Source of the DNA: a virus
Lineage: Duplodnaviria > Heunggongvirae > Uroviricota > Caudoviricetes
Virus record (IMG/VR): IMGVR_UViG_2671180755_000015
Reading direction: 5' to 3' (one strand)
DNA: 9,584 nt
Both the position numbers and the translations under genes were made by a program. The notes under the pieces are model-generated. The model was not told where the DNA came from. It made no database searches and saw only the letters and a program-made list of their open reading frames with translations. The first letter of the stretch is position 1; each line of letters begins with the position of its first letter. This document shows positions 6,442-7,922 of this stretch, piece after piece.

Positions 6442-6621
6442 ATGGAAAGAGACCATATCAATAACAAATCACAGAAATTACAGGCTCGCGCCCCGCATGA
6501 AGTTGTTGAGGCTATGGAGCAAGTAAAAGAAACAGGCGAGAGCACTGCGCAATTTATCGTTACAGCCATGCGAGGCGAGATCAAACGCCGCCAGCGCCGT
6601 AAGGCCAAAGAATCAGAATAA
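6442..6621 (+). CDS. Small ribbon-helix-helix-like protein (59 aa), candidate transcriptional regulator
   Basis: Not in the ORF track (below 60 aa). ATG at 6442 preceded by AGGGAA. Translation: MERDHINNKSQKLQARAPHEVVEAMEQVKETGESTAQFIVTAMRGEIKRRQRRKAKESE. The pattern (short strand, helix, turn, helix, basic tail) resembles RHH regulators. Divergent from the replication operon. Confidence 0.5.
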   Translation: MERDHINNKSQKLQARAPHEVVEAMEQVKETGESTAQFIVTAMRGEIKRRQRRKAKESE

Positions 6622-7066: not shown

Positions 7067-7140
7067 GCACTGATCCAATTTTTTCGCAGCAGGTTAATTG
7101 TTCGCAAGGGCGCTCCGGCAACGGGGCGCTTTTTGTTTTT
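7067..7140 (+). ncRNA. Candidate small RNA (~70 nt) from the extended -10 promoter to the terminator
   Basis: Defined only by the promoter at 7052-7060 and the terminator at 7110-7140. Contains an internal CCTGC...GCAGG stem. No coding potential. Hypothetical. Confidence 0.3.
7110..7140 (+). terminator. Intrinsic terminator with GNRA tetraloop (plus strand)
   Basis: Stem GCGCTCCG / CGGGGCGC (one G-U pair), loop GCAA, followed by TTTTTGTTTTT. Confidence 0.75.
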
Positions 7141-7298: not shown

Positions 7299-7877
7299 TT
7301 ACTGAATACGCTCACCAAAGTAAAACTCAGGCTGATATTCACGTATCAGCCTTTTTTCTTCTTCCTCCAGTTCACGTTTTTTGCGCTTACATGCCTGTAG
7401 CGCCCTCCCCTTCTCGCTGGCACTTATCTGATATTGCTCTTTACGGCGGGAAAAATCCTGTAATGCACCCCACGGGATACCATAAGCCCCCGTTTTTCTG
7501 ATACCCGGTATCACATTTCTGAATACCCAGTTACTGAAACGATGGGCGAATGTGCCTTGCGTCGTTGCTTTGCGGCTACGGGCTATTAGTTTGTAGAAAC
7601 CTGACTCAGAGATAATGCTCATATTCTGATTTCCTCCTGGGGTGTAAGTTAAATTTACTCCCTTTTCATCATCATCAAGCATCTGCAACGCCGTACGCGA
7701 ATTGGTCAGTTCCAGCGCAGCGCAGACATCCTTTGCAACAAACCACGGATCGCCGTTCAGATACACCACGCGAACGTTCACACTATCAAAGCGCAGAACG
7801 ACCAGATCACGAAAATCACAGAATTTTTTTACATGACGTGCGTCACCCTTGCCCGTCACGGCAATATTTTTATTCAT
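7299..7877 (-). CDS. Bro-N domain protein (antirepressor-like), 192 aa
   Basis: N-terminal region matches the Bro-N signature (VRVVYLNGDPWFVAKDVCAALEL ... ISESGFYKLIARSRKATTQGTFAHRFSNWVFRNVIPGIRKTGAYG). C-terminal ~60 aa is highly charged. ATG at 7875-7877 with SD GAGGT. Confidence 0.8.
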   Translation of the reverse strand: MNKNIAVTGKGDARHVKKFCDFRDLVVLRFDSVNVRVVYLNGDPWFVAKDVCAALELTNSRTALQMLDDDEKGVNLTYTPGGNQNMSIISESGFYKLIARSRKATTQGTFAHRFSNWVFRNVIPGIRKTGAYGIPWGALQDFSRRKEQYQISASEKGRALQACKRKKRELEEEEKRLIREYQPEFYFGERIQ

Positions 7878-7897
7878 TTCTTTTTTACCTCACATAC

Positions 7898-7922
7898 AAA
7901 AAACCCCGCATTGCACGCGGGG
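7898..7922 (-). terminator. Intrinsic terminator between the alpA-like gene and the Bro-N gene
   Basis: Stem CCCCGC / GCGGGG (7904-7909 / 7917-7922) with a 7-nt loop. On the minus strand it is followed by U6 (A 7898-7903). Confidence 0.7.

Follow-up and report, generated by a model that had tools for sequence, protein, structure and literature searches.

The Bro-N gene of the satellite island analysed here begins exactly 20 nt behind an intrinsic terminator, and no recognisable promoter lies in between. The explanation that we favour, and to which its sequence context leads us to give about an even chance, is that the gene has no promoter and would be made by transcriptional read-through, most likely by Q-modified RNA polymerase coming from the late promoter of the helper prophage in which the island is embedded. 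The window, by which we mean the whole stretch of DNA analysed, is 9,584 nt long. The junction was read directly on its minus strand, and all coordinates are window positions unless another locus is named. The features that the argument needs are as follows.

9584-9562, minus strand: last 23 nt of the truncated 5' half of the helper prophage gene gpA (ATPase domain), co-oriented with the island.
9392-8154, minus strand: tyrosine integrase gene of the satellite (int), annotated in RefSeq, with Arm-DNA-bind_3, Phage_int_M and Phage_integrase domains.
8140-7937, minus strand: excisionase-like HTH gene at the alpA position, 67 aa (PHROG 66, sub-threshold HTH_17).
7923-7898, minus strand: predicted Rho-independent terminator, on the basis of its stem and T6, fold energy and conservation.
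7897-7878, minus strand: Bro-N leader of 20 nt with the Shine-Dalgarno sequence (SD) GAGG at 7891-7888, nearly invariant in relatives.
7877-7299, minus strand: antirepressor-like gene with a Bro-N domain, 192 aa (PF02498, PHROG 2593).
2661-2643, minus strand: second strong in-line terminator, directly after the SSB gene (-12.4 kcal/mol, T6).

The HTH and Bro-N genes are separated by 59 nt, and these contain a classical intrinsic terminator. The hairpin starts 13 nt on from the HTH stop codon (TAA, 7939-7937) and consists, on the minus strand, of a 5' arm at 7923-7915 (ACCCCGCGT), a loop at 7914-7912 and a 3' arm at 7911-7903. A consensus terminator scan scored it as 9 pairs, 6 of them GC, with a loop of 3 and the tail TTTTTGTATG, and placed it in the top two of the minus-strand terminator-like sites of the window. 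The T6 run (7903-7898) is continuous with the 3' arm. The fold energy of the hairpin by itself is -14.8 kcal/mol; the 76-nt stretch around it folds at -19.6 kcal/mol (z = -2.67), a value that no shuffle out of 200 reached. When the plus strand is read, TATGAAAG comes after this hairpin and there is no T-run, so that it is predicted to be unidirectional. With its GC-rich stem-loop and immediate T run, the element is, as judged from sequence, a genuine Rho-independent terminator that closes the int/excisionase-like-HTH unit, and presumably an efficient one. The preliminary description of this DNA had placed an intrinsic terminator at the end of an int/alpA unit, and the scan, the fold energy, the shuffles and the conservation described below all agree with that prediction. 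It had also put the Bro-N ATG (7877-7875) with its SD some 20 nt past the hairpin and U6; the distance from the last T of the T6 run is exactly 20 nt (7897-7878).

Bro-N is well supported as a gene. The ORF matches Pfam PF02498 with E = 4.9e-20 and 72.4 bits, well above the cut-off of 25.6, over residues 34-124, and RefSeq uses the same ATG as start codon. It also matches PHROG 2593, annotated 'anti-repressor', with E = 1.5e-85. Its dN/dS values of 0.06-0.38 indicate purifying selection, and the gene must therefore be expressed somehow. The HTH gene upstream begins 13 nt past the int stop codon, with the SD GGAGG in between, and the int-to-HTH gap is 12-13 nt in 32 of 33 loci. Since int adjoins it, the HTH gene has no space for a promoter of its own. 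This gene had been labelled alpA, a name that the profile searches do not bear out: the 67-aa protein gives no significant match to Phage_AlpA (PF05930) in a Pfam profile search and stays below threshold for HTH_17 (E = 0.004-0.005; 17.7 bits against a cut-off of 27). It does match PHROG 66, 'excisionase and transcriptional regulator' (E = 9e-7), and bears a faint likeness to lambda Xis (E = 0.8). In two other junction types, B and C, the genes at the alpA position match PF05930, with E-values from 7.5e-14 to 1.7e-9.

The terminator is conserved behind unrelated upstream sequence. We compared 17 distinct junction sequences from about 100 related loci, and in all 17 a hairpin of -9.3 to -16.5 kcal/mol and a run of T5-6 are retained, with an ATG 19-21 nt further on. 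The upstream gene occurs as four alleles, namely the HTH gene of the window, a variant ~75% identical to it in nucleotide sequence and two true PF05930 AlpA types. Homology between these junction contexts starts within the hairpin; the 5' arm is supplied each time by non-homologous sequence, with loops of 3, 5 or 8 nt, and when column-wise covariation was attempted the 5' arms did not align across alleles. In type B, a change in the 3' arm from GCGGGG to GAGGGG is matched in the 5' arm by CCCCGC to CCCCTC, a compensatory pair from G-C to T-A. This pair aside, nothing varies in the 3' arm, the T-run or the first part of the leader, even though Bro-N dS reaches 0.58. The structure is thus kept despite sequence change across the 17 variants and four upstream alleles. 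The stop codon of the upstream HTH/AlpA gene lies 8-13 nt before the hairpin across the junction types. The type C islands (L003 3416-4037) carry two AlpA paralogues in tandem, each with its own hairpin and T-run followed 15-20 nt on by the SD and ATG of the next gene, and so have two terminators in series ahead of Bro-N.

An additional pairing is available to a read-through RNA, in which UAUCUU (7933-7928) can pair with the Bro-N SD GAGGUA (7891-7886) and lengthen the terminator helix, giving a minimum free energy of -19.6 kcal/mol versus -14.8 kcal/mol for the hairpin alone. This helix extension (7933-7886) could dampen Bro-N translation; it is not clearly conserved in junction types B and C.

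By sequence comparison, the terminator travels with the Bro-N module and not with embedding as such. It is not a feature of Bro-N genes in general, since homologues of 51-65% identity lack it, both those in Providencia, Erwinia, Serratia, Klebsiella and other genera and those in IMG/VR loci L172-L176. Nor do embedded satellites as a class carry a terminator after alpA: where the AlpA of an embedded island shares 62-68% identity with that of type B, other cargo follows alpA, and a canonical terminator is mostly missing there. In deposited phage genomes the Bro-N core had no more than distant matches, and the leader and the terminator had none.

A strict consensus scan found no minus-strand sigma-70 site anywhere from int to Bro-N. 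A permissive scan was scored out of 12, and its background was taken as the best score per 38-nt bin over the whole window. Here the best candidate starting after the 5' arm reached 6.5/12, under the window median best-per-bin of 7.0. This candidate uses TGCAAT in the hairpin loop and would start transcription 26 nt ahead of the Bro-N ATG; it is absent in type B, scores 5.0/12 in type C, and no candidate after the 5' arm in the permissive scan is common to junction types A, B and C. The four HTH alleles carry unrelated sequence 5' of the hairpin 3' arm, and a shared -35 box or operator is therefore not possible there. Weak promoter-like sequences are present upstream of int. A real terminator, no promoter found and a Bro-N gene under selection are most simply reconciled by read-through, and, as part of the whole explanation given above, we hold it to be an evenly balanced proposition that Bro-N has no promoter of its own and would be made solely in this way. 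The dependence of Bro-N on read-through had been put forward in the preliminary description, and this is where it gains partial support: its logic is sound, no promoter rises above background, the terminator is conserved and Bro-N is selected. The other route offered there, a promoter embedded in the alpA 3' end, finds no candidate above background in either scan, and neither does a sigma-70 promoter in the gap.

The setting of the island, which the preliminary description missed, is the Q-dependent late operon of a lambdoid prophage. The neighbourhood was taken from the chromosome of E. coli 2013C-3342, which is 100% identical to the window (locus L001, in which position equals 20201 minus window position). 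The window is a ~10-kb island (L001 10640-20980) that splits the gene for the terminase large subunit, gpA, of this prophage into halves at L001 9641-10639 (GpA_ATPase, E = 6e-82) and 20980-22110 (GpA_nuclease, E = 7.8e-82). The ATPase half is directly upstream of int, with attL between the two, and the nuclease half is downstream of the island. Between them the gene order is int, HTH, Bro-N, two small convergent genes (one of them YlcI/YnfO), Icd-like, DUF4222, primase, SSB and a ClpP-protease/capsid fusion. With the exception of the two convergent small genes, these named genes are co-oriented with the late genes of the prophage. The window is thus a helper-embedded PICI (HE-PICI), a class described in 2023 (PMC10111431): it lies inside, and co-oriented with, a prophage late gene, and has the zone order of int plus AlpA/HTH_17, Bro, primase/SSB and late genes.

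The same placement recurs in relatives. Of two sister islands that have this Bro-N gene, one interrupts a lambda-type portal gene and the other a P27-type terminase gene. Among the 72 IMG/VR loci that have this Bro-N gene and enough upstream sequence to be assessed, 71 have a co-oriented truncated late gene immediately upstream (gpA in 32, TerL in 17 and portal in 22). The remaining locus adjoins a LysR gene and is an off-target copy in which the arrangement is kept. The island itself is found at 99.7-100% identity in many O121:H19 and O157:H7 STEC genomes.

The helper has the parts of a Q-type lambdoid late operon. A Q antiterminator gene (PF03589, E = 1.5e-51; PHROG 127) lies upstream of the island and is oriented like it; behind this gene come a promoter-like stretch and a tR'-like hairpin at about L001 3316-3340, both read by eye. 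Four more in-line terminators lie between the tR'-like hairpin and the terminase gene, and the five late-operon terminators from Q to terminase have energies of -11 to -19 kcal/mol. The two strong in-line terminators of the island (-14.8 and -12.4 kcal/mol) are of the same class and in series with those of the helper. All three helpers examined, those of the window and of the two sister islands, carry Q upstream and in the same orientation.

Several other features of the island were observed. The ClpP-protease/capsid fusion gene of the island (129-2018) has a counterpart of the same name in the helper, from L001 23811. Directly downstream of the primase gene, at 3372-3601, GGTGAACAGT occurs at least nine times, in both orientations; this array is probably the satellite replication origin and gives rise to spurious Rfam microRNA matches. 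Back-to-back promoter-like sites at 6331-6380 (plus strand TAAACA-16-TATAAT, 10/12; minus strand TTGAAG-18-TATACT) separate the YlcI/YnfO gene (6442-6621, plus strand) from the Icd-like/primase operon (minus strand), and probably form the satellite's own control region. The Icd-like protein matches a PHROG annotated as a transcriptional repressor. A 370-aa minus-strand ORF (7154-6042) runs across the convergent-gene region; it has no RefSeq annotation, overlaps annotated genes of the opposite strand and is probably spurious. Two terminators on the plus strand face Bro-N and should halt convergent transcripts from the YlcI/YnfO side; the second of them is also present in EcCICFT073.

7329-7352, plus strand: terminator-like hairpin with T7, inside the 3' end of the Bro-N ORF.
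7106-7133, plus strand: strong terminator of 12 pairs, 7 of them GC, ending the convergent YlcI/YnfO-hypothetical unit downstream of Bro-N.

Because the island lies inside the Q-antiterminated late operon and is co-oriented with it, the likeliest antiterminator is the helper's Q acting in cis. In lambdoid phages, Q-modified polymerase ignores terminators of this kind over tens of kilobases. Stray transcripts of int and the HTH gene would end at the terminator while the lysogen is quiet, and Bro-N would be off. On helper induction, terminator-resistant Q-modified polymerase, having started at the helper late promoter, would run through attL, int and the HTH gene, pass the terminator and continue into Bro-N. 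The products, namely Int, the excisionase-like protein and Bro-N, would then arise together at helper late time, as a pulse only, because excision cuts Bro-N off from the helper promoter; any action of Bro-N as an antirepressor would come later. That helper late transcription reads into these satellites has been hypothesized already (PMC10111431). More tentatively, at somewhat less than an even chance, the terminator may be a dedicated sensor that separates the Q-modified polymerase of the helper from ordinary polymerase; on the fuller statement of the same claim, this lineage would have dropped the trans-induced alpA promoter and would detect helper induction in cis, firing a pulse of integrase, excisionase-like protein and antirepressor. 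Counting against a Q gate are the limit to a pulse that excision imposes and the degraded state reported for many helpers of these satellites (PMC10111431).

The first of the alternatives to a Q gate is a passive attenuator, in which a leaky terminator would let through a fixed share of int-HTH transcription and so hold Bro-N low relative to Int, with no antiterminator at all. Intrinsic terminators within operons are commonly partial, the weak promoter-like sites upstream of int could feed transcripts that leak past this one, and the arrangement has been retained in the off-target copy beside the LysR gene, all of which would suit such an attenuator. However, the -14.8 kcal/mol hairpin and its unbroken T6 resemble the helper's own late-operon terminators, and efficient termination is predicted for this reason. 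Two such terminators in a row stand ahead of Bro-N in the type C islands, an arrangement that simple leakiness does not readily explain, and the gene sits in an operon whose polymerase is known to become terminator-resistant. We therefore regard leakage by itself as unlikely, while counting it a serious competitor.

A promoter of Bro-N's own, overlapping the hairpin or the HTH 3' end, dependent on an activator or an alternative sigma factor and with a start in or after the hairpin, would be a quite improbable source of the transcript. It could have escaped our consensus scans, which miss activator-dependent promoters; AlpA activates transcription in free PICIs (PMC6092414), and the loop TGCAAT does provide the 6.5/12 candidate with its start 26 nt before the ATG. 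That candidate nevertheless falls under the window median and is lost or weakened in types B (absent) and C (5.0/12), the unrelated sequence upstream in the four HTH alleles has no shared -35 box or operator, and the ATG is just 20 nt from the T-run. Lower still, and to our minds very improbable, is suppression of the terminator by a satellite factor, whether the HTH/AlpA-like protein or translation of its ORF, as auto-regulated antitermination or attenuation. A protein named AlpA is a processive antiterminator in Pseudomonas aeruginosa (PMC7969949), and the stop codon here is just 8-13 nt before the hairpin; but the proteins concerned are winged-helix or HTH proteins of 67-92 aa, and four different HTH alleles are found with one leader. 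Attenuation by a terminating ribosome or by alternative pairing is itself unlikely, since a ribosome stalled at that stop codon would scarcely reach the 5' arm and no alternative antiterminator helix was seen. AlpA as a possible read-through factor, which had been raised in the preliminary description, accordingly does poorly: the upstream gene is not an alpA, and the same leader serves all four alleles. Reading through by Q-modified polymerase thus remains the explanation that we prefer.

The matter bears on how Gram-negative PICIs sense their helper; the phage-encoded inducer of alpA in free islands had not been identified as of 2018 (PMC6092414). If read-through is Q-dependent, embedded satellites would need no inducer protein and would read the late commitment of the helper from the state of its polymerase. 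This would be a testable variation on ordinary phage antitermination, and would give a simple wiring diagram for a satellite class that is present in many O157:H7 and O121:H19 STEC strains and, by one estimate, in roughly 5% of E. coli genomes (PMC10111431). It would also mean that terminators within a satellite are tolerated in the middle of a helper late operon. If leakage is all that there is, the element would be an ordinary intra-operon attenuator.

Among known systems, satellite P4 (as summarized in PMC10111431) is alike in having vis, an alpA homologue, followed by eta, a Bro-network gene under transcription-termination control. P4 differs in that it uses CI RNA/seqA pairing and translational coupling, whereas an intrinsic terminator in a 59-nt gap is found here. 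Immunity of the P4 type was rejected for this island, as the whole window gave no Rfam match to C4 or isrK at E up to 1. The P. aeruginosa AlpA antiterminator shares with our case its name and a terminator immediately upstream of the regulated gene, but it is much larger, has a Q21-like fold (PMC9371919) and loads at a promoter element. We rejected it as a model of antitermination here, given its unrelated fold and the absence of sequence similarity: a PDB search with a true PF05930 AlpA returned no P. aeruginosa AlpA at E up to 1, and the 67-aa protein of the window is too small for a Q21-like antiterminator, with its N-terminal ring in the RNA exit channel and C-terminal HTH. The nearest solved AlpA is PDB 8C3T, for which no citing paper was found in the literature.

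The free Gram-negative PICIs (Fillol-Salom 2018, PMC6092414) are much closer. EcCICFT073 (L178) was read directly, and 69 related IMG/VR loci (L179-L247) were compared. Like the embedded islands, these PICIs have, in this order, int, alpA, a Bro-derived ORF, a divergent YlcI/YnfO gene, Icd-like, DUF4222, primase, SSB and capsid. ORF3 of EcCICFT073 is a truncated remnant of the present Bro-N gene, whereas the embedded islands keep Bro-N intact. The free PICIs have an int-alpA spacer of 350-442 nt with a promoter-like TTGCCA-17-CACAAT carrying an extended TG; in contrast, in embedded islands with this Bro-N gene, int abuts or overlaps the HTH/AlpA gene. The promoter-like site is consistent with the AlpA-autoactivated promoter that was shown experimentally in free PICIs (PMC6092414). 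None of the 69 free EcCICFT073-type loci has a terminator after alpA. The free PICIs (L178 4715-5010, L179-L247) do have a conserved GC hairpin, GGCGGC-ACACA-GCCGCC, right after alpA, without a T-run. The contrast between free and embedded islands fits a switch from trans induction to cis read-in, but it could also be mere lineage, because the terminator tracks the Bro-N module and not embedding.

The HE-PICIs of Tommasini, Mageeney and Williams (2023, PMC10111431) are alike in being integrase-bearing satellites inside, and co-oriented with, a prophage late gene, with the zones in the order integration, Bro, replication and late; their model element lies in a capsid gene, whereas the island here splits the terminase gene gpA. 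The text of that paper has no word in 'antitermin-' and is silent on intrinsic terminators inside these satellites, and in the literature on helper-embedded satellites we found no follow-up with transcript data. As far as the literature searched extends, the hypothesis of a Q-gated antirepressor is new. Lambdoid Q antitermination itself (pR'/tR') differs in that the terminators are the phage's own; here the terminator belongs to an inserted satellite, and it is by inference that we extend Q dependence to it. In both cases GC-rich hairpins with T6-8 stand in line with promoterless genes, and the terminator of the window lies in the same transcription unit as those of the helper and matches them in strength. 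The element is therefore of an ordinary kind, an intrinsic terminator before a promoterless phage-type gene, in an unusual and recently recognized setting.
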